From contig JANJGN010000121.1 in assembly GCA_026770705.1 (NCBI GenBank), positions 682,001 to 746,000 on the forward strand: a stretch of 64,000 nucleotides of DNA, in the 5' to 3' direction. Positions 3,023 to 64,000 of this stretch are shown here, in pieces. Position numbers and translations under genes: made by a program. The stretch's first letter is position 1. Each line of letters begins with the position of its first letter. This DNA is from Isurus oxyrinchus. Taxonomy: Eukaryota. A model generated the notes under the pieces. That model worked only from the letters and a program-made list of their open reading frames with translations, did not search any database and was not told the DNA's origin.

Positions 3023-3165
3023 CCAGGACCTGTCCGACTGCTCGCCTGGGGAGGAACTGCCCACACGCTCTGCTTGGGCTGAATGACCTCTTCCTGTGCT
3101 GCTCCCTCTGTGTGTTTAATTAGAAAGGGTTGATGTGTCTCTGTGAGTCAAAATGAGGAAGTTGG
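3023..3165 (-). promoter_or_regulatory. Unit A non-coding first exon (~3023-3100) and promoter with TATA-like TAATTAAA, ETS/PU.1-like GAGGAAGT (3155-3162) and AP-1-like TGAGTCA (3144-3150)
   Basis: CTGG|gtaagt donor at 3022; block conserved upstream of the leader exons. Confidence 0.6.
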
Positions 3166-4900: not shown

Positions 4901-6174
4901 TCTTGCGTGCATTCAGATTAAGAACCTTTCTGTCTTTTCCCCATTTCCCCTACTCTGACCTTATTTGCTGGGACACTGGTTGGTGCTGGTTTCAGTCTCA
5001 GTTTGTCTCAGTTGCTCACACTCTGGCCTCTGTCTCGAGACTGATATTCCCTCTTGGTAGTGACAGTGATAGGGGTGTTGGGGAGGGTGTGGATATTGAC
5101 CCCACTGCTCCCCCTCCCCCACTCCGCCATTCTTTCCTGGGAGATCCGCCAGGATCCTTGTTCCAGCTGCGATGGGCAGCCCTTCCACACTTTCCTGTCG
5201 GTCCCGCACTTCATGTGTAAAAGCGCTAAGTTAGAGCAGGGATGGGGAAATGAACAGGGGGCGTGGAATGAGTGTGGAGGTCTCACAGCCAGAACTGACC
5301 CTGCCCACAACTCTGTGAAGGGGGGGAGGTTTCACCAGCTCTCTGTCTTAACAATATCGTAAACACAGGGTGAAGATTGTCCCCATTTCCTGTATCTTAA
5401 TAATATTGTAAAGACAACTGGGAGATGTCCTGCAGTCTCTGAGAAAGAATTTGGTGCACCTACAGCACCACCACTGGCAAGAGAGTGTAAGTACAGTGTG
5501 ACATGTTTACATGGGAAATTTTCATGATAAATGTGGACACAGGAATTTTTGATAATTTGGTGGGGAAATGCAATGATATGAAATAACAGATTGGAGCAGG
5601 AAGGTTGTCCTAGAGTAAGATGTTTAATAAAAATATATCTGTACAGAGTTATCTGGGCATTTCAATCCCTTGTGACAATAAATGTAATATCATAGAAAAT
5701 GCAAAGGCTTCTTGTAATCTATCACAGAATAAACAAGTTGCAGAATTCAGAAAGCACTTTCTGAAATGTTAACAAGGTTCAGTGACGTCACATTTCTGCT
5801 AATGACTATTCGGCCATGTTGGCTGCACGCAGTCAGGCAGTCCCTCGGTTGTGATGTGTCCACACAGCTGGACTGGGATGCATCAGCATCAAAGGACATG
5901 CTTAGTTGTTGCTGTGCAATGCATTTATTGCGAGCCTGTTGCACACACGCCCTGTCGAAGGAGCCTCCGTGTTTCCATTCTGAATCGAGGCAGATCAATA
6001 TTACTACAACAACTTGCATTTATATAGCACCCATAATGTAGCAAACTATCCCAAAGCTCTTCAGGGGATTGTTAACCACATATAAATCCATCTCTGAGAC
6101 ACATAATGAGATATTAGGGACAGGTGACAAAAAGCTGAGTTAACAGAGCCAGTTAATAAGGACCATGTTAAAGG

Positions 6175-6534: not shown

Positions 6535-6783
6535 TCAGTTTCGCTTGAATCTGATCTGTGCGTATTCCGTCTCCTCTTCCCTGTGGACAGACGCATCACC
6601 ACTGGACACCCTGAAGACTTGGGGATTGGCGTAGAGAAGGTCGTTGGGATTGTCAGGGATTCCATGTCCAGCATCGCCTCCCACTGCACCTTCAGAGAGA
6701 CCCCAGGGAGCTGGGGTCTCCCCCTCACTAGTTGTTTCTCTGGTTGTTTTCCGGGGCTCAGTAATCAGCACGTTCTGTTTACC
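6535..6783 (-). CDS. Unit B distal terminal cytoplasmic exon: GKQNVLITEPRK...DLLYANPQVF...EEETEYAQIRFKRN*
   Basis: ccatttctctgtag|GGT acceptor, phase 0, 249-bp open frame, ITSM TEYAQI; minus-strand AATAAA at 5924-5929. Confidence 0.8.
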   Translation of the reverse strand, partial: GKQNVLITEPRKTTRETTSEGETPAPWGLSEGAVGGDAGHGIPDNPNDLLYANPQVFRVSSGDASVHREEETEYAQIRFKRN

Positions 6784-6924: not shown

Positions 6925-7125
6925 GGCAATGCAGCACTCCCTCAGTACTGACCCTCTGACAGTGCAGCACTCCCTCAGTACAGACCCTCTGACAGTGCAG
7001 CACTCCCTCAATACTGACCCTCCGACAGTGCAGCACTCCCTCAGTACTGACCCTCCGACAGTGCAGCACTCGCTCAGTACTGACCCTCAGACAGTGCAGC
7101 ACTCTCTCAGTACTGACCCTCTGTC
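6925..7125 (+). repeat. 33-bp satellite array (actgaccctccgacagtgcagcactccctcagt)
   Basis: ~6 tandem units visible. Confidence 0.9.
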
Positions 7126-7279
7126 AGTCTCGCAATCCCTCTGAAATGTCTCTGGCGAGTGCTGGCTTAGATTCTGCACTCAGGTGCCTGGTGTGAGGCT
7201 CAATAACATGAAACTTGTAATCAGAGACATGATGAGAAAGAGAGAGAGAGGGAGAAAGAGAGAGGAAGGATTATGAATC

Positions 7280-8148: not shown

Positions 8149-8230
8149 CTGGTGTTTCACAGAGAGTGGACTGGGGGTCAATGCAATGTCTCTGGTCCCT
8201 GAAACTCTCTCCTCCATCGCTGTCTTTCTC
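8149..8230 (-). CDS. Unit B distal juxtamembrane cytoplasmic exon (K)RKTAMEERVSGTRDIALTPSPLSVKHQ
   Basis: ttattgcag|G acceptor (phase 2, matches the TM exon), CAG|gtacag donor (phase 0, matches the terminal exon). Confidence 0.75.
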
Positions 8231-8830: not shown

Positions 8831-9153
8831 ATCTCACAGATCAATGTATTTATTGTGACCCTGCTGCACACACGCCCTGTCGAAGGAGCCTTTGTGGTTC
8901 CATTGTTAATCGAAGCAGATCAGAGTTACTACAACAACTTGCATTTCTTTAGCACCTTCAATGTAGCAAAACGTCCCAAGGCTCATCCGGGGATTGTTAG
9001 TCACATCTTCACCTGACTCTGAGGCACATGAGGAGATATTAGGGACAGGAGACCAACAGCTGAGTCAACAAAGTCAGTTCTTAACGGGCATCTTAAAGGA
9101 GGAGCTGGAGATAGAGAATGAGAGACAGACACAGAAAGAAAGACAGAGACAGG

Positions 9154-9427: not shown

Positions 9428-9676
9428 TCAGTTATGCTCGAACCTGATCTGTGCGTATTCCGTCTCCTCTTCCCTGTGGACAGACCCATCACCACTGGAA
9501 ACCCTCAAAACTTGGGGATTGGCATAGAGAAGCTCGGCGGGATTGTCGGCGTTCCCATGTCCAGCATCGCCTCCCACTGGACCTTCAGAGAGACCCCGGG
9601 GAGCTGGGGTCTCCCCCTCACTAGTTGTGTCTCTGGTTGTGTTCTGGGGCTCAGTAATCAGCACGTTCTGTTTACC
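9428..9676 (-). CDS. Unit B proximal terminal cytoplasmic exon: GKQNVLITEPQN...ELLYANPQVL...EEETEYAQIRFEHN*
   Basis: ctctgtag|GGT acceptor, 249-bp open frame, ITSM TEYAQI; minus-strand AATAAA at 8849-8854. Confidence 0.85.
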   Translation of the reverse strand, partial: GKQNVLITEPQNTTRDTTSEGETPAPRGLSEGPVGGDAGHGNADNPAELLYANPQVLRVSSGDGSVHREEETEYAQIRFEHN

Positions 9677-9819: not shown

Positions 9820-10185
9820 GACAGTGCAGCACTCCCTCAGTTCTGACCATCCGACAATGCAGCGCTCCCTCAGTCCTGATCCTCTGACAGTGCAGCACTC
9901 CCTCAGTACTGACCCTCCGACAGTGCAGCACTCCCTCAGTACTGACCCACCAACAGTGCAGCACTCCCTCAGTACTGACCCGCTTACAGTGCAGCACTCC
10001 CTCAGTCCTGACCCTCTGACAGTGCAGCACTCCCTCAGTACTGACCCTCCGACAGTGCAGCACTCCCTCAGTACTGACCCACCAACAGTGCAGCACTCCC
10101 TCTGTACTGATCCTCCGACAGTGCAGCACTTCCTCAGTACTGACCGTCCGACAATGCAGCAGTCCCTCAGTACTGACCCTCTGTC
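9820..10185 (+). repeat. 33-bp satellite array
   Basis: ~11 tandem units. Confidence 0.9.
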
Positions 10186-11236: not shown

Positions 11237-11318
11237 CTGGTGATTCACAGAGAGTGGACTGGGGGTCAATGCAATGTCACTGGTCCCTGAAACTCTCTCC
11301 TCCATCGCTGTCTTTCTC
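11237..11318 (-). CDS. Unit B proximal juxtamembrane cytoplasmic exon (K)RKTAMEERVSGTSDIALTPSPLSVNHQ
   Basis: gcag|G acceptor (phase 2), CAG|gtacag donor (phase 0), 82 bp. Confidence 0.8.
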
Positions 11319-15702: not shown

Positions 15703-16071
15703 CAGAAACGTGAAGCTGGGTTACAGGGTAATAGTTATGGCTCGGACCTTTGTCAAATTCTATTCTGAAAAAATAAGGTCCTGCATCTTCCCATCTGATG
15801 TTGTTTATAATCAGGGAACAGTCGCCATCTTTCAGGTCTCCAGACAGCCGGGTCCGATGGTGGAACCGTGGTAACTCGTGATTGTGAACCTTGGAGTGAA
15901 AGGCAATGGGAGCCCAGGGAATCTGTTTCTCATTATTAAACCAGACTCCAGCTCGCGGTCGGTTTTCCAAATGTGCTGGATAACTGTAATGACATGGAAT
16001 CTGTACACACGAACCTTCCTGCGCTGTCACCTCTCGTGGAGTGTCACCTTTCCACTCTTGTGACAGTCCAA
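15703..16071 (-). CDS. Unit B Siglec-type V-set exon V1 (GSCVQIPCHY...GDCSLII...GPYFFRIEF)
   Basis: ccccag acceptor, TCTG|gtaagt donor, 369 bp; Siglec Cys pattern and F-strand Arg (cf. CD33 SYFFRME). Confidence 0.92.
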
Positions 16072-16464
16072 CTGGGGAGTGAAATGTCAATATTTAACTC
16101 TGGATGTTTTTTCGATCCACTAGACTTGATATCCGGTCTGGATCCGAGCACAGGAGACACGGGAGGGAGTGACTAACAGGCTCCTTGTGACAGGCCCCGT
16201 CTGTCCAATGGCTGGCTTTCAGCTGCCAAGGCCAGAGTGGTCCTTGCTAAAACTGGCTCAGGACAGGCCAGGACCTCTGTGCAGACCCCCTCCAGCGCTG
16301 CAGCCTCTGTACAAACCCCTCATGCGCTTGTGGAGAGACACAAACAAGGCTGCACATTACCGAGGAGAATCCCCTCTACGGACTAAGGGACTGACTCATC
16401 ACCTTAAACTCAGCAAATGAGGAGGCTCTCGCTCGGTATCGGGGCTTGGCATTGGCTCAATAAA

Positions 16465-16670
16465 AATAAGAGCTGTTTCAGCACAGTGGCTGGGGTGGGA
16501 ACCTGATTGGAGGGATTCAAACATGGAGTTCCGGGAATGATGGGAACGGATTCGGGAGATGGAAACACGTTCAAGGACTTTGGAGGGGATAGAGAGGCTG
16601 GAGATGGGACGGGGGTTTACACGGACAGTGTGAGGGGTGGAAGGTGTAGTGGGGAGGAGACACTTCACTC
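16465..16670 (-). mobile_element. L2-like LINE RT fragment, truncated relative to paralog 63660-64000
   Basis: 'PISSLSIPSKVLERV...FESLQSGSHPSHCAETAL'. Confidence 0.75.
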
Positions 16671-16888
16671 AGGGGGGAGGTGTCATCACCCCTCAGCTCG
16701 GTTTACGTTACAGCTATGATGTGGATTCAATCACACACAATAAGCTCATGGATCTGGGAGCAGAAATAGACAAATCATTAAAAATAGTGACGCTGGTTAA
16801 CACGGCCAAAAAACAAGCAAATCAAACACTATTATTTCCCATTGAGTGTTGGATGTGAATTGTTGAGTAATTATAACACAGCACTTAC

Positions 16889-17254
16889 CAGAAACATGAA
16901 GCTGGGTTTCAGGACGGTCGTTGTATCTATTCCTGCTGTCAAAATCTGTTCTGAATAAATAATATCCTGCATCTTCCCGTCTGATGTTGTTTATAATCAG
17001 GGAACAGTCACCATCTTTCAGGTCTCCAGAAAGCCGGGTCCGATGGTGGAACCATGGTAACTCGCGACTGTGATCCTTGGAGTGAAAGGCTATAGACCAT
17101 GTTTCCCAATTCCTTCTCATATACCAGATTCCAACAGGTGATCTCGGTACTAAATATGATGGGTAGCTGTAATGACACAGAATCTGTACACACGAACCTT
17201 CCTGCGCTGTTACCTCTCGTGGAGTGTCACCTTTCCACACTTGTGGTAGTCCAG
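16889..17254 (-). CDS. Unit B Siglec-type V-set exon V2 (GSCVQILCHY...WYMRRNWETWS...GYYLFRTDF)
   Basis: ccctag acceptor, TCTG|gtaagt donor, 366-bp open frame, Arg retained. Confidence 0.88.
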
Positions 17255-23249: not shown

Positions 23250-23289
23250 CTTGGAGAAGAGACAGGAGGAAATAGGATTTCCCGATCAT
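23250..23289 (-). CDS. Unit B signal-peptide exon coding part (MIGKSYFLLSLLQ); exon 23250-23331
   Basis: ATG at 23289, CAAG|gtaat donor; splices in frame to V2 or V1. Confidence 0.85.
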
Positions 23290-23739: not shown

Positions 23740-23885
23740 CCAGGACCTGTCCGACTGCTCGCCTGGGGAGGAACTGCCCACACGCTCTGCTTGGGCTGAA
23801 TGACCTCTTCCTGTGCTGCTCCCTCTGTGTGTTTAATTAGAAAGGGTGGATGTGTCACTGTGAGACAAAATGAGGAAGTGGGTAA
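23740..23885 (-). promoter_or_regulatory. Unit B non-coding exon 1 and promoter (ETS/PU.1-like GAGGAAGTG at 23872-23880)
   Basis: Conserved donor and motif block. Confidence 0.6.
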
Positions 23886-24114
23886 CCAGTGAGAAGATCG
23901 AGGATGTTTTGTGCTCTCAGCAAAACGTTTACCATGTGATGATCTGTCAGCTCATATTTGGGCAGCTGTAGTCATGAAGCTTCTCCATTGGCTCTGTGGG
24001 ATTAGACTCCTCCTCCTCACCTCGGAGGCTGAAACTCAGGCGATAAGAGTTCCCAATACAGATCTCTGGCCTTATGATACATTTCAACGATCCCTGTTAT
24101 CATTACAAAGTGAG

Positions 24115-24930
24115 TGCTGCACTGTCAGCGGGACTTTACTGTGGGAGTGCTGCACTATCAGAGGGTCAGTAATGTGGGAGGGCTGCACTGTCAGAGGGTC
24201 CGTAATGTGGGAGTGCTGCACTGTCGGAGGGTCTGTACTGAATGAGTTCCGCACAGTTGGAGGGTCAGTATTGAGGGTGTGCCGGATTGTGGAAGGGTTA
24301 GTACTGAGGTAGAGCGGAGTGTGAGGAGATATTCTTTCATGGCAAAGTTTAACTGGAATTTATTTAAACAGAGATTCTTGTACTGTGTGTTATTGCAAAA
24401 GAAATGATTTGAGGAACTAAGTCTTGTTCCCGTAAGCCTAAAAATAATTTTCAACGATTTCAATGATTTAGCAATGAAACCTCCCTCTTTGGGCACCAGT
24501 CTTGATTGAAACAACTCGCACAGCACTGTGGGAGGGGGAGTACTGAGGGTGTGCTGCACTGTGGGAGGGTGAGTCCTGAGGGAGGGCTGCACTGTGGGAG
24601 GGTGTGTACAGAGTGAGGGCTGCACTGTGGGAGGGTGAGAATTGAGGGAGTGCTGCACTGTGGGAGCGTCAGTACTGAGGGAGTGCTGAACTGTCGGAAG
24701 GTCAGTAGTGAGGGAAGGATACAGTATCAGAGGATCAGTACTGAGGGAATGCTACACTGTGGGTGGGTGAGTACTGAGGGAGTGCTGCACTGTCAGAAGG
24801 TCAGTGCTGACGGGGTGCTGCATTTGAAAAGGGTCAATAATGAGGTAGTGCAGCACTGTCAGAGGGACAGTAATGAGGGAGCGCTGCACTGACGGAGGGT
24901 CAGCACTGAGGAAACGCTGCACTGTCAGTT
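24115..24930 (-). repeat. 33-bp satellite arrays (24115-24310 and 24525-24930)
   Basis: agtactgagggagtgctgcactgt units. Confidence 0.9.
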
Positions 24931-26273: not shown

Positions 26274-26413
26274 TTAAACAGTCTGTCGACTTCCTTTCAC
26301 TGTTTGTCTCTCCCAGACACAGACTCCAGCGATAGTGATAACCACAGCCACAAGGAATATCACAGCTCGTATTCCCAGGATCAGGATCACGTGCAGAATC
26401 TCTCCTCCACTGT
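26274..26413 (-). pseudogene. Unit C activating-type TM/short-tail exon (SGGEILHVILILGIRAVIFLVAVVITIAGVCVWERQTVKGSRQTV*); frame intact but upstream exons are broken
   Basis: Inverted copy of 46398-46537; acceptor is caag instead of ctag. Confidence 0.8.
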
Positions 26414-28088
26414 CTTGAGAACACACAGAAAGAAATCATCACTGACTCTCCGCTTTCAATCTCTCACTCTGGCTGAACATTCAAGCTTCATATCACTGCA
26501 ACATTTGCTGTAATATTGACCCATCCACTGGGATTCAATGTGGAATGAATGTTTTCATTGTAAACACTCTAAGAGTGGACAATCGGAACTTTCCCCTTAG
26601 CGTGGAACATTGGTGAGAATGGATCATTGTGCTGTTGGACTCCCTGTCCAATGTTTCTCTCCATCGCTGTGTACAGGATTGTGCTGTAGAAAATTCTGGA
26701 AACGTTTAGTGCAGGGTGGAAATCCATCTCGGACGCGTGTGTGATTCGGGCAGGATCGAGATGGACTCCCCCACGGACATACACCCCCCGCTTAATAAAC
26801 AGCTCCAATCTTTACCCAGAGAGAGGGGAGAATGTGGAACTCGCTCCCACTGGGAGTGGTTGAGGTGAACAGTATCGATGTATTTAAGGGGCAGGAGGGT
26901 CGGTAACCAGAGGGACACAGATTGACGAACCGGAGGGGGAGATGAGGAGAATTTGTTTTGACAGAGCGAGTTGTTGTGATCTGGAAGGTGCTGCCTGAAA
27001 TGGCGGTGGAAGCAGATTCAATAGGAACTTTCAAAAGGGAAATTGGATAAACACTTGAAGGAGGAAGTTGGGGGCAAGGTGGAGTGGTGGTTAGTGGATC
27101 TGATTGGATAGATCATTGAAAGACCTGGCACAGGCACAATGAGCTGAATTGCCTCCTCCTGTGCTGTATTATTCTCCGCTTCCATGATCTCTCCCCCAGT
27201 CAGTAACCACTCCAGTTCCCTCTTGAAGGTGACAGAGAAGCAGCAACCACCACACCCACTGACAGCACATTCCCGAGGATCCCTACTCTCTGGGAAAAGA
27301 TGAGCTCCCCAACATCCAGCCTATTCCTGCTTCCCAGAGCGTGTAAACCCTTCAGGGAGGCGCTGAGGAAGTTTTCAATAAAATGAGTTATCAAATCTAC
27401 TGTTTGAGAAATAATTGAATTCCGATGAACTCACAGCTTGTGGAGCGAACTGGGAAGTGGAGTTGCTTGAAAAGCTGGGAGACACAAGGATTAAGTGCTA
27501 CAACGCCACCACTGGTGGAAGGCTGTAACTACAGTGTGATGTTTACATAGGCAGTCATCATTATAAACAGGGGCATTGGACATACTGGGAAATATGTGCA
27601 CGGAAATAGTGAGAACAAGATGTAAGCTTTTCACCAGCAAGAATTCTCGTACTAAACCTCTTCACCTCTCTTTTACTCTCAGATACACAAAAAAAATCAC
27701 AGAATCAGATAAGGAGGAATTGGGACTAGTTCTTTGTCAAAGGGTTAGGTTTCAGGTAGCTCCTTAAAGGGAGAGAGAGAGAGTTGGAGAAGCAGATAGT
27801 ATCTACGAGTGCCTCTATGCATCTGAGTGTTTGTACGAGTAATTTCCATATTCTTCCATAAATATGAATGGGAACACAAATCCCAGAATTCAGCCCACTC
27901 TCCAGGGCAGTACTGAGGGAGGTCAGGTAACCCATGAGGGAGTCTTGTGCTAGTGTGTTTGTTTGTGAGTGTGTCTTTGTGTGTGGTCATATATGTGTGT
28001 CTACACGTGTCTATTTAGGTCTGTATGTTTGAGGGTGTTTGTGTAGTGTTCGAATCTGTGAGAGATGTTGAAGTCTGTGTACACTCAC

Positions 28089-29720: not shown

Positions 29721-30096
29721 CAGAAACGTGAAGCTGGGTTACAGGATAATAGTTGTATCTATTCCTGTTGTCAAATTCTATTCTGAAAAAAATAAGGTCC
29801 TGCATCTTCCCGTCTGATGTTGTTTATAATCAGGGAACAGTCGCCATCTTTCAGGTCTCCAGACAGCCGGGTACGATGGCGGAATCTTTGATCCCTGTGA
29901 CTGTGACCCTCGGAATGAAAGGCTATAGACCATTTAGGCTGTGGGTTCCCATCTCTTCCTTTCAACCAGATTCCAACACGTGATCTCCCTACGAAATGTG
30001 ATGATTAACTGTAATGACATGGAATCTGTACACACGAACCTTCCTGCGCTGCCACCTCTCATGGAGTGTCGCCTTTCCACTCTTGTGACAGTCCAA
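29721..30096 (-). pseudogene. Unit C V-set pseudo-exon with TGA (30059-30061), TAA (30005-30007) and a +1 frameshift in the T-run before the essential Arg
   Basis: Manual translation against the five intact V exons. Confidence 0.9.
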
Positions 30097-31486: not shown

Positions 31487-31795
31487 GTGTCAGTACTGAG
31501 CAAGTGCTGCACTGTCGGATGGTCATTACTGAGCGAGTGTTGCACTATTGTAAGGTCAGTACTGAGGGAGATCTCCACTGTTTGAGGGTCAGTACTGAGG
31601 GAGTGCTGCACTATCAGAGGCACATTAATCAGGGAGTGCTGCAATGTTGGAGGATCAGTACTGAGGGAGTGCTGCACTGTTGGAGGGTCAGTACTGAGGG
31701 AGTGCTGCACTGTCAGAGGGACATTAATCAGGAAGTGCTGCACTGTTGGAGGATCAGTACTGAGGGAGTGCCGCACTGTTGAAGGGTCAGTATTA
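31487..31795 (-). repeat. 33-bp satellite array
   Basis: ~9 units. Confidence 0.9.
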
Positions 31796-31934
31796 AGGTG
31801 CTGATTTAGAAGACAGGACAATGGATTAGGAGCCCTCAGAACTCCCCCCGTGATTTCCAATCGATCCGTTACTTACCCAGGACCTGTCCGACTGCTCGCC
31901 TGGAGAGGAACTGCCCACACGCTCTGCTTGGGCT

Positions 31935-32545
31935 GCATGGGCCTCCTCCTGTTCCTGTGTAACAGGCTTGATGGGGCTGAATGGGCCTCCTCCTATTCCT
32001 GTGTAACAGGCTTGAGGGGGCTGAATGGGCCTCCTCCTGTTCCTGTGTTATAGGCTCGAGGGGCTGAGTGGGCCTCCTCCTGTTCCTGTGTTATAGGCTT
32101 GAGGGGCTGAGTGGGCCTCCTCCTGTTGCTGTGTAAAAGGCTAAAGGGGCTGAATGGGTTTCCTATTCCTGTGTAAGAGGGTTGAGAGACTGAATGTGCT
32201 CTTCCTGTTCCTGGATAACAGGCTAAGGTGACTGAATGGCCTCCTCTTGTTCCTGTGTTACAGGCTCTATGGGGCTGAATAGGACTCCTCCTTTTCCTGT
32301 GTAACAGGCTCGAGGGGCTGAGAGTCTCTCCTGTTCCTGTTGAAGGGTGTTGAGAGACTGAATGTCCTCTTCCTGTTCCTGTGTAATAGGCTCATGAGGC
32401 TGATGGGCCTTCTCCTGTTCCTGTGTAACAGGCTCAGGTGCTGAATGGGCCTCCTGCTGTTCCTGTGTATCAGGCCCGAGGGGTCTGAATGGGCCTCCTC
32501 CTGTTCCTGTGTAACAGGCTCAGGTGCTGAATGTCCTCCTCTCAT
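31935..32545 (+). repeat. ~43-45-bp tandem array resembling the CR1 3'-end motif (cctcctcctgttcctgtgtaacaggctcgaggggctgaatggg)
   Basis: ~14 units; unit matches the CR1 tail at 13882-13930. Confidence 0.85.
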
Positions 32546-37330: not shown

Positions 37331-37499
37331 GCTTCAGTTATTAGGATGGAAATTATATTTATAATCACTGTGCGAGGCACGGCCAGATTTCAATTTGCTT
37401 GCTTTCATTCCTTGCTTTTTCTTCCTTGTTTTTCACCTCATCACCAGTTTATTCAACCCTTGTCACTATTTTAGTTGACCAATGGGTGCGGTTTACATT

Positions 37500-38100
37500 C
37501 CCTCGGTACTGAGCCTGCGACAGTGCAGCATTCCCTTGGTACTTACCCTCCAGCAGTGCAGCACTCCCTCAGTACTGACACTCCGACGGTGCAGCATTCC
37601 CTCGGTACTGACTCTCCAACAGTGCAGCATTCCCTCAGTACTGACCCTCCGAAAGTGCAGCTCTCCCGCAGTACTGACCCTCCGACAGTGCAGCACTCCC
37701 TCAGTACTGACCATCTGACAGTGCAGCTCTGTCTCAGTACTGACCCTCTGACAGTGCAGCACTCCCTCAGTACTGACCCTCTGACAGTGCAGCTCTACCT
37801 CTGTACTGACCCTCTCACAGTGCAGCACTCCCTCAGTACTGACCCTCCAACAGTGCAGTACTCCCTCAGTACTGACCCTCTGACAGTGCAGCACTCCTTC
37901 AGTACTGACGCTCCGATTGTGCAGCACTCCCTCTGTACTGACCCTCTGACAGTGCAGTTCTCTATTAGCACTGACCCTCTGACCTTGCAGCACTCCCTCA
38001 GTACTGACCCTCTGACTATGCAGCACTCCCTCAATACTCACCCTCCAACAGTGCAGCTCTCTCTCAGTACTGACCCTCCGATTGTGCAGGACTCTCAGTC
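37500..38100 (+). repeat. 33-bp satellite array upstream of unit D
   Basis: ~18 units. Confidence 0.92.
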
Positions 38101-38329: not shown

Positions 38330-38472
38330 CTGACTTCCTCATTTTGTCTCACAGAGACACATCAACCCTTTCTAATTAAATACACAGAGGGATCAGCACA
38401 GGAAGAGGTCATTCAGCCCAAGCAGAGCGTGTGGGCAGTTCCTCCCCAGGCGAGCAGTCGGACAGGTCCTGG
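38330..38472 (+). promoter_or_regulatory. Unit D promoter (ACTTCCTC 38333-38340, TAATTAAA near 38373) and non-coding exon 1 ending at 38472
   Basis: CTGG|gtaagt donor; conserved block. Confidence 0.6.
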
Positions 38473-43974: not shown

Positions 43975-44280
43975 GCACTGACCCTTCTACAGTGCAGCAC
44001 TCCCTCATTACTGTCTCTCTAATAGTGTAATGATCCCTCAGTAGTGCTCCTCCAACATTGCACTGGTCAATCAGAACTGACGCTCTGACTGTGCAGTTTT
44101 ATCTCAGCAGTAACCCTCCTACAGTGCAGCGCTCCCACAGTACTGTCCCTCCTACAGTGCAGCACTCCCTCAGGACTGACCCTCTGACAGTGCAGCACTC
44201 CCTCAGTACTGAACCTCTGGCAGTGCAGCACTCCCTCAATACTGACCCTCTGACAGTGCAGCACGCCCTCAATACTGAAC
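43975..44280 (+). repeat. 33-bp satellite array
   Basis: ~9 degenerate units. Confidence 0.85.
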
Positions 44281-44692: not shown

Positions 44693-46397
44693 GTGAGTTA
44701 CACAGACTTTAATATTTCTCTCATCTCCGAACACATATACTCAGATGCTCTCCCACACACACACACACAAGCACTCACAAATGTACAGACCCAAAGTGCA
44801 TGCACACACACAATCCCACACTCATGAGCACACAGAAAGACACACTCACACACTAACACAGTAGTACACACTCCCCTGTGAGTTACCTGACCTCCCTCAG
44901 TACTGCACTGGAGAGTTCTCCTGGATTCTGGGATATGTGTTCCCATTCATATTTATCGAAGAATATCCAAATTACGAAGTCTATTCCAGAAACTCACATG
45001 CACAAAGATTCCAACTGATACTCCCCACCTCTCCATGTATCTCTCTCCTCCTTTAAGAAGCTTCCTAATCCCTAACTCTTGCCTGTCCTAACTCCTCCTT
45101 ATAATGCCCTGTGTCAAATTTTTTGAGTATCTGAGAGAAAGGGAGAAATAAGGAAGTTTAGGAAGGGATTTCCTATTAGTGAAGAGCTTACTTCATTTTC
45201 TCACCTTTCCAGTGTTCAGTTTTGCCATCATGTCCAATGACCCTGTTTATAATGGGGGCATCCTATGTAAACGTCACACTGACTTTACGTCCTCCCACCA
45301 GTGGTGGCACTGTGGTGCTTAAGCTTGCACCTCCCTGCTTTTCAGCCAACTTCACTTCACAATTTGCTACACATGCTGTAAGTTCATCGAAATTAACTTA
45401 TATATCAAACAGTAGATTTGATAATACAGTTTATTGAAAGGTTCATCCACGCTCTGGGAAGGGTTTACACTCTCCAGGAAGCAGGAATAGGCTGGATGTT
45501 GGGGAGTTCATCTTTTCCCAGAGAGTAGGGATCCTCGGGAATGTGCTGTCAGTGGGTGTGGTGGTTGCTGTCTCTCTGTTGCCTTCAAGAGGGATCTGGA
45601 GTGGTTACTAACTGGGGGAGAGATCATGGAAGTGGAGAATGATACAGCACAGGAGGAGGCCATTCAGCCCATTGTGCCTGTGCCAGATCTTTCAATGTTC
45701 TATCCAATCAGATCCACTAACCACCACTCCACTTTGCCGCCATCTTCTTCCTTCAAGTGTTTATCCAATTTCCCTTTTGAAAGTTCCTGTTGAATCTGCT
45801 TCCACCGCCCTTTCAGGCAGAACCTTCCAGATCACAACAACTCGCTCTGTCAAAACAAATTCTCCTCATCTCCCCCTCCGGTTCGTCAATCTGTGTCCCT
45901 CTGGTTACCGACCCTCCTGCCCCTTAAATACATCGATACTGTTCACCTCAACCACTCCCAGTGGGAGCGAGTTCCACATTCTCCCCTCTCTCTGGGTAAA
46001 GATTGGAACTGTTTATTAAGCGGGGGGTGTAAGTCCGTGAGGAAGTCCATCTCGATCCTGTCCGATTCGCACACGCGTCCGAGATGGATTTCCACCCTGC
46101 ACTAAACGTTTCCAGAATTTTCTACAGCACAGTCCTGTACACAGTGATGGAGAGAAACATTGGACAGGGAGTCCAACAGCACAATGATCCATTCTCACCA
46201 ATGTTCCACGCTAAGGGGAAAGTTCCGATTGTCCACTCTTAGAGTGTTTACAATGAAAACATTCATTCCACATTGAATCCCAGTGGATGGGTCAATATTA
46301 CAGCAAATGTTGCAGTGATATGAAGCTTGATTGTTCAGCCAGAGTGAGAGATTGAAAGCGGAGAGTCAGTGATGATTTCTTTCTGTGTGTTCTCTAG

Positions 46398-46537
46398 ACA
46401 GTGGAGGAGAGATTCTGCATGTGATCCTGATCCTGGGAATACGAGCTGTGATATTCCTTGTGGCTGTGGTTATCACTATCGCTGGAGTCTGTGTCTGGGA
46501 GAGACAAACAGTGAAAGGAAGTCGACAGTCTGTTTAA
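46398..46537 (+). CDS. Unit D terminal TM exon, activating type: (Y)SGGEILHVILILGIRAVIFLVAVVITIAGVCVWERQTVKGSRQSV*
   Basis: ttctgtgtgttctctag acceptor, phase 1; hydrophobic stretch with internal Arg; short Tyr-free tail; AATAAA at 47519-47524; spliced CDS of 1128 nt (375 aa) is open. Confidence 0.85.
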
Positions 46538-47879: not shown

Positions 47880-49230
47880 ACTGACAGTGCAGCGTTTCCT
47901 CAGTGCTGACCCTCCGTCAGTTCAGCGCTCCCTCATTACTGTCCCTCTGACAGTGCTGCACTACCTCATTATTGACCCTTTTCAAGTGCTTCACCCCGTC
48001 ATCATTGACCTTCTGACCGTGCAGGATTCCCTCATGGCTGACAATCTGACAGTGCAACACTCCCTGAATACTGACCCTCTGATACTGTACCCCTCCATCA
48101 CTAATGACTTTCCGACAGTTCAGCACTCCCTAGGTACAGACACTCTGACAGGGCAGCATTCCCTCAGTATTCAAACTCCCACTATGCAGCTGTCCCTCAG
48201 GATTCTCCCCCCCACAGTGCAGCACTCCCTCAGTACTCTCACTCCCACAGTGCAGCACTCCCCCAGTACTCACCCTCCCACAGTGCAGCACTCCCTCAGT
48301 ACTCACCCTCCCACAGTGCAGCACTCCCTCAGTACTCACCCTCCCACAGTGCAGCACATCCTCAGTACTCACCCTCCCACAGTGCTGTGCGAGTTGTTTA
48401 AATCAAGACTGATGCCCAAAGAGGGAGGTTTCAATGCTAAATCATTGAAATCGGAGAACATTATTTTTAGGCTGAGGGGAACTAGACTTAGTTCCTCATA
48501 TCCTTTCTTTAGCAATAACACACAGTACTAGAATCTCTGTTTAAATAAATTCCAGTTAAACTTTGCCATGAAAGGATATCTTCTCACACTCCTCTCTACC
48601 TCAGTAGTAACCCTCCCACAGTCCGGCACCCCCTCAATACTGACCCTCTGACTGTGCAAATCTCACTCAGTACAGACCCTCCGACAGTGCAGCACTCCCA
48701 CATTACTGACCCTCTGACAGTGCATCACTCCCTCATTAAGGACCCTCTTCCAGTGCAACACTCCCACATTACTGTCCCTCTGACAGTGCAGCACTGCCAC
48801 ATTACTGACCCTCTGACAGTGCAGCACTCCTACATTACTGTCCCTCTGACAGTGCAGCACTCGCTCAGTACTGACCCTCCCACAGTGCAGCACTCCCTCA
48901 GTACTATACTCCTGACAGTGAAGCACTCCCTTATTAATGACCCTCTTCCAGTGCAGAACTCCCACATTACTGACCCTCTGACAATGCAGCACTCCCACAT
49001 TACTGACACACTGACAGTGCAGCACTCCCACATTACTGTCCCTCTGACAGTGCAGCACTCCCTCAGTACTGACCCTCCGACATTGCAGCAATCCTTCACT
49101 ACTGGCCCTCTGACAGTGCAGCAATCCCACATTACTGACCTTCTGATAGTGCAGCACTCACTCAGTACTGACCCTCACACAGTGCAGCACTCCCTCAGTA
49201 CTATACCCCTGACAGTGCAGCACTCCTTCA
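47880..49230 (+). repeat. 33-bp satellite arrays (47880-48390 and 48600-49230) upstream of unit E
   Basis: Many tandem units, including a cccacattactg variant. Confidence 0.92.
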
Positions 49231-49454: not shown

Positions 49455-49596
49455 CCACTTCCTCATTTTGTCTCACAGTGACACATCCACCCTTTCTAAT
49501 TAAATACACAGAGGGAGCAGCACAGGAAGAGGTCATTCAGCCCAAGCAGAGCGTGTGGGCAATTCCTCCCCAGGCGAGCAGTCGGACAGGTCCTGG
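49455..49596 (+). promoter_or_regulatory. Unit E promoter (CACTTCCTC 49456-49464) and non-coding exon 1 ending at 49596
   Basis: Conserved block and donor. Confidence 0.6.
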
Positions 49597-50046
49597 GTAA
49601 GTAACGGAACGATTGGAATTCACTTCCACGACCAACACCGTCCTATGTTGATGTTGTGACTTTATAAAGACAGATTCCAATGATTGATGTCTTTGAAAGA
49701 TTTCTACTAATTATTGAGATCTGGGTGTGAGGCTCAAGTCTGTTGTACAGAACATCTTTCGAGCTCAAGGGATGAGGGAAGTGCAGAGACATGAGCTTTG
49801 GGACATCCTGAGGTGGTGAAAGGTGCTATGGAAATGCAAGTCCTTCATTGTTTTTCCTTCTTAAAGCCTTGTAACTCTCTGCAGAACACCTATCATCCCA
49901 CAGAGAATCAAACTATTCTGTGAAGACATTGTCTAAAAGCAGATCTGATCTCTCGAGAGCATTCGGACAAGAGGTGAGGTCTCATTAACTCCTTTCTCTT
50001 TCAGAACTTCAGAGTTAGAAGCTGAGGAAATATCTGGGAGTGGACA

Positions 50047-50086
50047 ATGATCGGGAAATCTTACTTCCTCCTGTCACTTCTCCAAG
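50047..50086 (+). CDS. Unit E signal-peptide exon (MIGKSYFLLSLLQ); exon 50005-50086
   Basis: Intact splice sites and ATG. Confidence 0.85.
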
Positions 50087-50948
50087 GTAATATCATCGTC
50101 AGCTCAGACAGATTTATGGTGAATAGTCTTTGTAAAAGATCATTCTTATTGAGCTGTGATTGGGAACTGATTCAGCAGTGAGCCAGTGTACATACTCACA
50201 CCAAGTCCCATTCACCCATCACCCCTAAACTATCTGACTCCTGGTCCTACAACATCTCAAACTTAAGATTCACATCTCTTTGTTCAAATGCATCCATTGC
50301 CTCACACTGCCTCCTTATCTCTGTAACCTCCTGCAACTCTCCCAACCAACGTCCCAGATCTCTGTGTTACTCCAATTCCGGCCTCTTGACCATCCCCCGA
50401 TTCCCATCACTCCAATACTGGCGGCCGGGCCTTCAGCTGCCTGGGGCCTGAGCTCTGGAATTCACTCCCTAAACCTCGGCGATGGAGGAGATCAGAGGGT
50501 TTCATTTTACTGAAAACCACCACGACTACATCACAGCTGCAGTGAGAATAGACAGAGAGTCCAGCCCTCGCACTTCCTGCACAGTTTCACCATAGCAACC
50601 ATAATAAGGAAGTAAAATAACTGAAAGTTAAACCGAAGACAAACCAGTCAGTTTAGAGAGATGAGATGTTTACACAGTTTCCCTGTGTGTCTTGTAAACA
50701 CTGTGTTGGGTGGAAGACTGGCTTCACTAAACAGGGTCCTGAGGACCATGAGCCAATGTAGAATGAAGTTGTCCACTCCTGTGTCCAGGATTCTCTTCCA
50801 TCCATTATGAAACCCCTGGGGAGTTCCATGTGTGTCCTGTAGATGGTCCACACTGCAGCCAATGTGCCCCAGTGATGGAGGGGGTGGATATCGAGTCTAG
50901 TGGATCTACAAACCATCCAGAGTTAAATATTGATATTTCTCTCCCCAG

Positions 50949-51317
50949 TTGGACTGTCACAAGAGTGGAAAGGTGACACTCCACGAGAGGTGACAGCGCA
51001 GGAAGGTTCGTGTGTACAGATTCCATGTCATTACAGTTATCCAGCACATTTGGAAAATCAACCACGAGGTGGAGTCTGGTTTAATAATGAGAAACAGATT
51101 CCCTGGGCTCCCATAGCCTTTCACTCCAAGGATCACAGTCGCGAGTTACCACGGTTCCGCCATCGGACCCGGCTGTCTGGAGACCTGAAAGATGGCGACT
51201 GTTCCCTGATTATAAACAACATCAGACGGGAAGATGCAGGACCTTATTTTTTCAGAATAGAATTTGACAATGGTCCGGGCCATAACTATTACCCTGTAAC
51301 CCAGCTTCATGTTTCTG
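50949..51317 (+). CDS. Unit E Siglec-type V-set exon (9 aa different from unit B V1)
   Basis: 369-bp open frame, canonical splice sites, YFFRIE. Confidence 0.9.
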
Positions 51318-52175
51318 GTAAGTGCTGTGTTATAATTACTCAACAATTCACATTCAACACTCAATGGGAATTAACACAAACTGTGATGTTTACATATTAA
51401 CACAAAACACAGCTTGTTTTAACACATTGTCTGATTCTCAGTAACCTGGTGATGGCTTCCAGTTTAGTCCTAAAGCAACATCTAATACTCACTTTAATAT
51501 CAATGATGAAAAGCATTAACTGTATTATCAGGTTATCCACTCCCATCAATCTCTCCTGTCCTGTTTAAAAGGCTGACGTATCGATAAAAGAAAGATGTGC
51601 ATTTCTGCTGCGCAATTTACCACCTCAGGAGGATCCAAATCCCTTCACAGCCAATGAAATTATTCCTGAATTGTAGTCACAGATGTTAAACACAGCAGGC
51701 AGTTTGTGCACAGCAAGATCCAACAAACACAATGTAATAAATCACCCAGATCACTGAGGAAATGAGAAGCCAGTGAACTCAAACCTCTGGTCTGATGAAG
51801 AGTCATACGGACTCAAAACGTTAACCCTGTCTTCCTCTCCACTGATACTGTCAGACCTGCTGAGTCTTTCGAGCAATTTTTGTTTTTGTTTCAGATTTCC
51901 AGCATCCACAGTATTCTGCTTTTAACTCCAATCTCTGGTCTGAGCCTCTTCTCTCATCCAGTGTTCTCAATTTACATGTCTCGGAGTGAACGTGTATTAA
52001 GCTGAGAGACAGAAACACTACTGCCAAAGAGCAAGAAAATCTTTCCTGATCATTGTAACCTCTCAGTTCTGATATCATCCTTGTAAAAGTGCTTTCTCTT
52101 GTGGGACTGTGATTTCTATTTGAACTGATGCTTCACGTTATATTTCTCTAAAAGGATCCATTCTCTGTCTGTTAG

Positions 52176-52472
52176 ATTTCACAGATAAACCCACGATATT
52201 CCCTGCTGAAATTATTGCAGGAAAGCGTGTGGATGTAAGCTGCACCTTCAACACAACGTGCAATGGAACAGCAGCACCTGTCTTAACCTGGGACACTCCC
52301 ACTGACGTACCTGGATCAGTCTCAAACACTGTAACTCAGCATGGTGTCACTCTGTCCTATACTTCTGTTCTGACCCTGATCCCATCACTCAAACACCACG
52401 GACACACTCTCAGCTGCAGAGTGAGATATCCATCTGTTTCATCGGAGCGGACCCTCGTACTAACTGTGCAAG
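52176..52472 (+). CDS. Unit E first C2-set exon
   Basis: 297-bp open frame, gttag / G|gtaatt. Confidence 0.88.
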
Positions 52473-52796
52473 GTAATTACATACACCTTTCATTCTACAT
52501 CAGCACTCCCTCAGCGCAGACCCTCTGACAGTGCAGCCCGTTCTCAGTATCCACATTCTAAGGCCTCTCTAAGTGCTTCAAAGTCGATAGAAGTTAATTG
52601 ATCTTTATATGATTATTGCTGAATGAAGAGACAAGCTGTCTAAACTTTACATCTCGCACACACCATTCTCCATGGCAACACCTCCACCTATCAGAGACCA
52701 CTTGCCAACCAATCAGCACTCTCTTCCCATTAAGTATAAATTGTTGTTCACTTTCTGTTGGTAATCCTGTGAACGGGCTTCTTGATTCCTGCCATG

Positions 52797-52948
52797 ACAT
52801 CTGAATGTCCAAATGAACAGAACAAGTTCCAACAATGAGCTGTGGTTGGTGATTCCTCACATTACCTCCAGGGACACTGGAGACTATCAGTGTGTGGCAG
52901 AGAATGAACATGGAGCAGTGGATGGGTTCATAACCATCACTGTGGAAC
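52797..52948 (+). pseudogene. Unit E truncated second C2 exon (3' half only)
   Basis: Same lesion as 28089-28240. Confidence 0.85.
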
Positions 52949-63065: not shown

Positions 63066-63443
63066 TTGGACTGTCACAAGAGTGGAAAGGCAACACTCCA
63101 CGAGAGGTGACAGCGCAGGAAGGTTCGTGTGTACAGATTCCATGTCATTACAGTTACTCATCACATTTGGTAAAGAAAACACATGTCGGAATCTGGTATA
63201 TGAGGAGGTACATACAGAACAAATGGTCTAAATGGTCTATAGCCTTTCACGCCAAGCATCACAATCGCGGGTTACCACGGTTCCACCATCGGACCCGGCT
63301 GTCTGGAGACGTGAAAGATGGCAACTGTTCCCTGATTATAAACAACATCAGACAGGAAGATGCAGGACCTTATTTTTTCAGGATAGAATTTGACATTGCT
63401 CCGAGCCATAACTATTACCCTGAAACCCAGCTTCACGTTTCTG
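63066..63443 (+). CDS. Unit F Siglec-type V-set exon (...WYMRRYIQNKWSKWS...GPYFFRIEF...), GC donor, no leader exon of its own
   Basis: cccag acceptor, 378-bp open frame, TCTG|gcaagt donor. Confidence 0.8.
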
Positions 63444-63659: not shown

Positions 63660-64000
63660 CTGAGTGAAGTGTCTCCTCCCCACTACACCTTCCACCCCTC
63701 ACACTGTCCGTGTAAACCCCCGTCCCATCTCCAGCCTCTCTTTCCTCTCCAAAGTCCTTGAACGTGTTTCCATCTCCCGAATCCATTCCCATCTTTCCCG
63801 GATCTCCATGTTTGAATCCCTCCAATCAGGTTCCCACCCCAGCCACTGTGCTGAAACAGCTCTTATCAAGGTCACAAATGGCATCCTGTGTGACTGTGAC
63901 AAAGGTCAACTTTCCTTCCTCGTCCTTCTCGATCTGTCTGCAGCCTTTGACACGCTCGACCACACCATCCTCCTCCAACACCTCTCCACTGTCGTCCAGC
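63660..64000 (+). mobile_element. L2-like LINE RT fragment
   Basis: Translates FESLQSGS..H.AETALIKVTN..LVLLDLSAAFDTLDHTILL. Confidence 0.85.

Follow-up and report, generated by a model that had tools for sequence, protein, structure and literature searches.

Siglec reviews treat the presence of two V domains as an oddity of Siglec-12. The available portions of three papers describe two V domains in this protein, also called Siglec-XII (PMC6288428, PMC6829431, PMC7876704), so the rule of one V domain per Siglec, from which the initial annotation of the present locus started, does not hold. In CD33, V-domain C36 forms an inter-domain disulfide with C2-domain C169, as given in an excerpt of PMC6669322. 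The paired Siglecs 5/14 and 11/16 carry one head on opposite signaling ends, and the SIGLEC14/SIGLEC5 fusion allele combines an activating-type 5′ part with an inhibitory-type 3′ part (PMC4042635, from the part of the text available). We present here a chimeric gene of the shark Isurus oxyrinchus that combines traits of these systems and is, on balance, probably a young deletion fusion encoding one inhibitory-type Siglec-like receptor with the order V2-V1-C2, in which a cysteine of V2 would be unpaired.

The window is the whole stretch of DNA that was analyzed, 64,000 nt long, and all positions refer to it. It lies within a very large Siglec-like cluster of a 4.98-Gb genome, and the chimeric gene is on its minus strand (Table 1). 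The nearest proteins are Siglec-like models of the white shark and basking shark, with 89 to 93% identity. The Siglec layout of a V-set domain followed by a C2-set domain and a single transmembrane helix is present, here with two V domains before C2. The features compared with those of an inhibitory Siglec are the uncharged anchor, TEYAQI, which occurs twice, and the proximal LLYANP; we take LLYANP to be a degenerate rather than a canonical ITIM and TEYAQI to be ITSM/ITIM-like. Among contigs of sequencing runs, the 5′ non-coding exon is spliced onto the leader exon in runs X1, X3, and X4, and the V-to-C2 joint 14974/15703 is present in runs X1 to X3, both at the level of the family rather than of this locus.

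Table 1. Exons and intron segments of the chimeric gene in transcript order
Feature	Positions	Strand	Remarks
5′ non-coding exon	23740..23820, outer end approximate	-	tblastn and blastn matches; near-identical to cytoplasmic-exon sequence of relatives
Leader coding exon, MIGKSYFLLSLLQ+G, phase-1 donor	23250..23289	-	sole leader of the gene
V2, first-type V-set exon	16889..17254, 366 nt	-	TAG acceptor, GTAAGT donor; open
V2-V1 intron, 5′ part, ending in a cut LINE (L2/CR1-like RT) piece	16466..16888	-	
V2-V1 intron, middle segment, typical of V-V introns	16135..16465	-	ends at blunt fusion junction 16135/16134
63 bp of first-type V upstream intron, with branch-point-like site and acceptor	16072..16134	-	
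V1, first-type V-set exon at inner position	15703..16071, 369 nt	-	CAG acceptor, GTAAGT donor; HYSYPAH, not HYSYPSC
C2-set exon, BC-loop Cys (CTFNTTC) aligned to CD33 C169	14678..14974	-	
Transmembrane exon, helix without charged residue	12292..12388	-	
Tail module 1, exon a	11237..11318	-	
Tail module 1, exon b, LLYANP and TEYAQI, in-frame internal GT donor 9443, stop	9428..9676	-	AATAAA at 8854
Tail module 2, exon a	8149..8230	-	
Tail module 2, exon b, LLYANP and TEYAQI, without internal donor, stop	6535..6783	-	AATAAA at 5929

Like Siglec-12, the window gene has two N-terminal V domains before C2 and a tail with tyrosine motifs, and its inner V lacks a BC-loop cysteine, as does that of the monkey Siglec-12 ortholog (P0198). 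Unlike Siglec-12, both V domains keep the essential arginine, the leader has an exon to itself, inner V domains of the shark family form a dedicated type with an extra cysteine, with stacks reaching seven, and the window gene is a recent chimera. The junction is young, and the V pairing of the window gene is therefore independent of SIGLEC12. The gene likewise joins an activating-type 5′ part to an inhibitory-type 3′ part, with one head found on opposite signaling ends. Of known events, the SIGLEC14/5 fusion is the nearest; that human fusion passes through homologous sequence and yields a Siglec-5-identical protein (PMC4042635, in the portion available), whereas the shark joint is blunt and intronic and adds a domain.

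V2 and V1 are indeed both open, in phase 1/1, and separated by an intron of 817 bp (16888-16072), as first annotated and now confirmed by exon coordinates and splice sites. Their C-C′ loops differ as described (WYMRRNWETWS in V2 and WFNNEKQIPWAP in V1), and a search for family exons at E ≤ 0.01 found no leader, C2, or other family exon either between them or in the leader-V2 interval. The two domains are identical at 84 of 122 aligned residues, and both match Pfam V-set above the cut-off. Their cysteines lie at 21, 26, and 83/84 only, namely, the odd Siglec cysteine and the B-E pair, with none in the F strand, where the arginine is kept (YFFRIEF in V1, aligned with Siglec-5 YFFRVER; YLFRTDF in V2). 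V2, with the odd cysteine, the B-E pair, and the F-strand arginine and without a BC-loop cysteine, is a first-type domain. The best PDB matches of V1 are Siglec-5, Siglec-7, MAG, and CD33. A genome search with V1 gave 813 candidates, of which 40 were scored; all 40 were 97 to 100% identical and lay on a few contigs, so the match of V1 is not due to chance. CD33, Siglec-5, Siglec-10, and MAG have the same odd cysteine pair and arginine as the shark domains but one V only, and CD33 fits the V-C2 part of the model of a shark relative with Z 18.7 and rmsd 2.9 Å over 206 residues. The pIgR/CD300-like proteins have several V domains in series, like the shark stack, and pIgR tops the whole-model Foldseek list, but with 16 to 17% identity and rmsd 17 to 25 Å. 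Their V domains carry the canonical Ig disulfide, not the Siglec pattern.

Tandem V exons by themselves are nothing special in this shark cluster. Of 114 related proteins, 34 have at least two V domains, mostly adjacent; a further V follows 7 of the 22 leader-first V exons in a stretch of 600 kb taken without selection; and rows of three, four, five, and seven V exons occur in genes of related type. Two-V models were also found in lynx, tree shrew, turtles, frogs, and arowana. Six of 22 listed sequencing runs were examined as contigs, with RNA status guessed and with other individuals or species as possible sources. In probable RNA contigs, the 3′ end of one V exon is joined to the 5′ end of another at canonical intron borders (16071/16889 in X1, and a V joined onto an EPSQ-type inner V in X2), as family-level joints not assignable to the window locus; X4 and X13, the latter probably DNA, had no V-V joint among those listed. 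The mirror-arm gene beyond position 64000, with which comparison had been proposed in the initial annotation, is also V-V. It is a V-V(PSC)-C2-Arg anchor gene (63066-63443 and L001:2957-6083), shows no leader match between itself and the truncated gene at 50008-52947, and is possibly another deletion fusion. Genes at C189:686001-706000, C52:595001-615000, and C52:3247001-3267000 have rows of seven, five, and four open V exons, respectively; every inner V of these genes has the BC-loop cysteine, and an Arg anchor stands at the end where seen.

The annotated break of homology at about 16135 is real: the sequence upstream follows the V2 family, and the sequence downstream follows the 63 bp at the end of an intron of the first-type V kind. 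No bases are shared at the joint 16135/16134 in the alignments made. This blunt junction, with different relatives on each side, bears out the proposed fusion of two genes at about 16135. The genome holds exactly three instances of the pattern spanning 16135/16134 (control, 0), and these lie on two contigs, inside segmental duplicates that are 98.8 to 99.6% alike. The cut in the LINE piece at 16466/16465 is equally real. It was rejected as part of the fusion and does not stem from the same event, as had been suggested: it is older, common to 12 parent copies, and corresponds to an intron deletion of about 1.8 kb relative to the mirror arm. No listed contig bridges the 16135 junction, and among these contigs no splice joint is specific to the window locus; the loose ends at 16135 in X3 and X17 contigs are of the parent type.

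The parent of the 5′ part is well represented. V2 is 98 to 99% identical to 13 copies, all on Arg-anchor genes, and all 13 of these other copies (≥98%) have the order V2, V(PSC), C2, half C2, and DSGGEILHVILILGIRAV anchor, the anchor having a buried arginine. Since these 13 are already V-V, the V-V layout was not made by the fusion, contrary to the initial annotation; judged by sequence, the fusion appears to have swapped the inner V and the signaling end. No gene could be matched as the exact 3′ donor, and the 3′ half of the window gene is a mosaic; a single-V gene with the V type of V1, a short V-C2 intron, and the same anchor and tail is present at C71:1200038. V-V-Arg genes stand head-to-tail before a PAHL single-V gene at C52:15001-35000 and C52:3247001-3267000, and a deletion of about 12 kb in such a pair would yield the layout of the window. 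Elsewhere in the window, a V exon with stops and a frameshift at 29721-30095 is a pseudogene in all three segmental copies, and short-tailed anchor exons with a buried arginine (activating type) lie at 46397-46534 and 26277-26414. An X1 contig shows, as a loose end, a C2-to-Arg-anchor splice that skips the half C2 exon.

Inner V exons of the family have a BC-loop cysteine seven residues after the B-strand cysteine (HYSYPSC). It is present in 51 of 54 open inner V exons versus 1 of 59 open first V exons, in a sample of 1.42 Mb and 149 V exons partly chosen by similarity; 21 exons without an upstream leader or V and 1 frameshifted inner V fall outside these ratios. The three exceptions are V1, which has His at this position, and its two near-identical copies only. 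In the unselected 600 kb, the cysteine occurs in 8/8 inner versus 4/22 first V exons (P = 8e-5, which, as with all P values for this rule, is too strong because paralogs are not independent), and 3 of these 4 first V exons are broken. Five of six Cys-bearing first-position V exons are broken and one is open; C52:1127575 is listed with four broken relatives. Annotated elasmobranch proteins from ten shark and ray genera have the cysteine in 38/49 inner versus 0/86 first V domains, a count made on automatic models and related paralogs that excludes 18 domains that were unparsed or truncated and 19 that were not placed; the 11 of 49 inner domains without it, including 4 of 6 in two rays, count against the rule. 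Where the first and inner V exons of a gene are nearly identical (11 to 17 nt differences of 369), the His/Cys difference persists in 8 of 8 genes.

CD33 C36 and C169 align with the cysteines of shark GSC and CTFNTTC, and the cysteine of TTC lies in the BC loop, six residues after the B-strand cysteine. These alignments suggest that the inner V likely copies the C2 acceptor cysteine, letting V domains chain by disulfide, and in normal stacks the inner cysteine would take the disulfide that C2 provides in CD33. For V1-C2, the odd cysteine and its BC-loop partner are both present by sequence; the odd cysteine of V2 finds His at the partner position in V1 and would remain unpaired in a V2-V1 protein, as the initial annotation predicted. 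A natural V-V protein model fits Siglec D1-D2 with rmsd 5.0 to 6.7 Å over about 205 residues (antibody chains, 12 to 13 Å), a comparison made with the natural relatives P0014 and P0016 rather than the V2-V1-C2 protein of the chimera, and with pLDDT under 50 in the V-V linker. This predicted fit is compatible with chained V domains, without proving them. On a tree of 94 V domains with the cysteine site masked, inner and first labels change 10 times versus 28 when shuffled; this is a quick tree whose starred branches force only 2 label changes, consistent with one or several origins, and it places V1 among inner IPWAP-type domains without support. The inner V of bony-vertebrate two-V proteins lacks the BC-loop cysteine in 9 of 10 named. 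The inner V of the arowana (Scleropages, P0180) has a BC-loop cysteine at +4, and Bufo P0188 has two upstream V domains without the odd cysteine; toad and arowana are other solutions to the spare cysteine in V stacks. A literature search outside subscription journals listed no report on shark multi-V Siglecs or the inner-V cysteine.

Under the reading that we consider probable, a deletion would have placed the leader and V2, taken from an Arg-anchor two-V gene, in front of a V exon of the first type, followed by C2, an anchor lacking charge, and tails with tyrosine motifs. By default, splicing would include V2 and V1 one after the other, as in the parent genes, and the free cysteine of V2 may be tolerated or may drive dimer formation. 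The V2 head would thereby gain an inhibitory-type counterpart to its activating-type sisters, comparable to Siglec-5/14. Two-V receptors without the inner cysteine exist (Siglec-12 ortholog P0198 and others), which counts in favor of this reading.

Possibly the gene is nothing more than a young passenger. An explanation we hold to be unlikely, yet the most serious of the rivals, is that the chimera is a drifting by-product of birth-and-death turnover, open because it is recent and with little or no expression or with a product retained in the cell. The three copies are under about 1% apart, and relative to its two sisters the window copy has 3 private replacements (P>L, D>V, R>W) and 0 silent changes in V2 and V1, near the intron rate; yet none of the three copies has a broken exon or splice site, and the C2 and anchor exons show 0 differences. 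Broken copies are common, with a stop in a V exon in 5 of the 13 parents. All 51 other open inner V exons obey the cysteine rule, which suggests that mismatched stacks are purged, but Siglec-12 and other two-V proteins manage without the inner cysteine. Absence of the junction from the listed contigs also fits a passenger; against this, rare variants are lost from contigs, and other individuals or species may be the source of the runs.

The initial annotation had proposed that alternative inclusion switches glycan specificity. In this form, splicing would pick V2 or V1 to make paired single-V receptors with differing glycan preference, and quality control would remove the V2-V1 form. We regard this as quite improbable: no mechanism for it was found, nor any transcript among the listed contigs. 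In its favor, no other stack seen has two V domains of the first type; either single-V form would be a canonical Siglec, and the double form alone would have a free cysteine. The V1 acceptor has a T>A change in its pyrimidine tract, a form present in 2 of 112 open exons, but the pyrimidine counts of 13 and 12 match the family mode, and each donor is the GTAAGT usual in the family. V-exon skipping occurs in CD33. A shorter spliced Siglec-XII is likewise mentioned in the part of PMC7876704 available. The V2 donor, however, serves a V-to-V intron in 13/13 parents, no V2-to-C2 joint is among the joints listed (best 15 of 23 and best 15 of 55, a call limited by the near likeness of the last 20 bases of V2 and V1), and both heads are already supplied by separate family genes. 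Double inclusion in Dscam-like mutually exclusive pairs is blocked by steric hindrance, spliceosome type, frame, or RNA pairing, and none of these blocks was found here: the intron has 817 bp, both introns are GT-AG, and double inclusion is in frame. A switch by RNA pairing was rejected, as just 4 short, imperfect inverted repeats of 14 to 20 nt are present, counted without a shuffle control.

Nor is the proposed 2x2 isoform set the simplest outcome, as the tails can be chained in frame through the GT donor at 9443. This internal donor of tail 1 reads AG/GTTCGA and is in frame, tail 2 has none, and the white shark models P0028 and P0046 chain the tails. Genes have one to three tail modules, and an in-frame GT before the stop is found in 7/7 inner and 6/12 readable last modules. 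A choice between one-tail and two-tail lengths is likelier than a tail swap.

A broader scheme, in which hundreds of genes form a modular shark Siglec system with stapled inner V stalks of one to seven domains and heads swapped between activating and inhibitory types, and in which the chimera is a true two-specificity switch by splicing and cysteine pairing, strikes us as very unlikely. That the 16135 junction is an assembly error is hardly credible: the cluster holds hundreds of near-identical paralogs and the junction is absent from the listed contigs of DNA run X17, but it recurs in three copies, spread over two contigs and each with distinct differences and flanks, as a blunt joint between unlike sequences and not in a shared repeat.

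If the deletion-fusion reading is correct, a putative binding head passed from genes of the activating type to genes of the inhibitory type. The cluster shows an elasmobranch-wide stacking of predicted sugar-binding domains with position-specific cysteines, and the chimera, with the same family and stack and the inner cysteine missing, would be a natural control for the staple idea; it opens both the disulfide rule and the origin of paired receptors to testing.

Further features recur across the window. A 5′ non-coding exon precedes each leader (23740-23820, 3023-3103, 38394-38472, and 49516-49596), and these exons are near-identical to the cytoplasmic-exon sequence of relatives (SSTGRGHSAQAERVG...). 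A 33-bp minisatellite family occupies introns and spacers at 6930-7128, 9820-10181, 24112-24928, 31489-31792, 37499-38081, 44113-44278, and 48115-49226, and an array with a 42- to 44-bp unit lies at 31930-32541.
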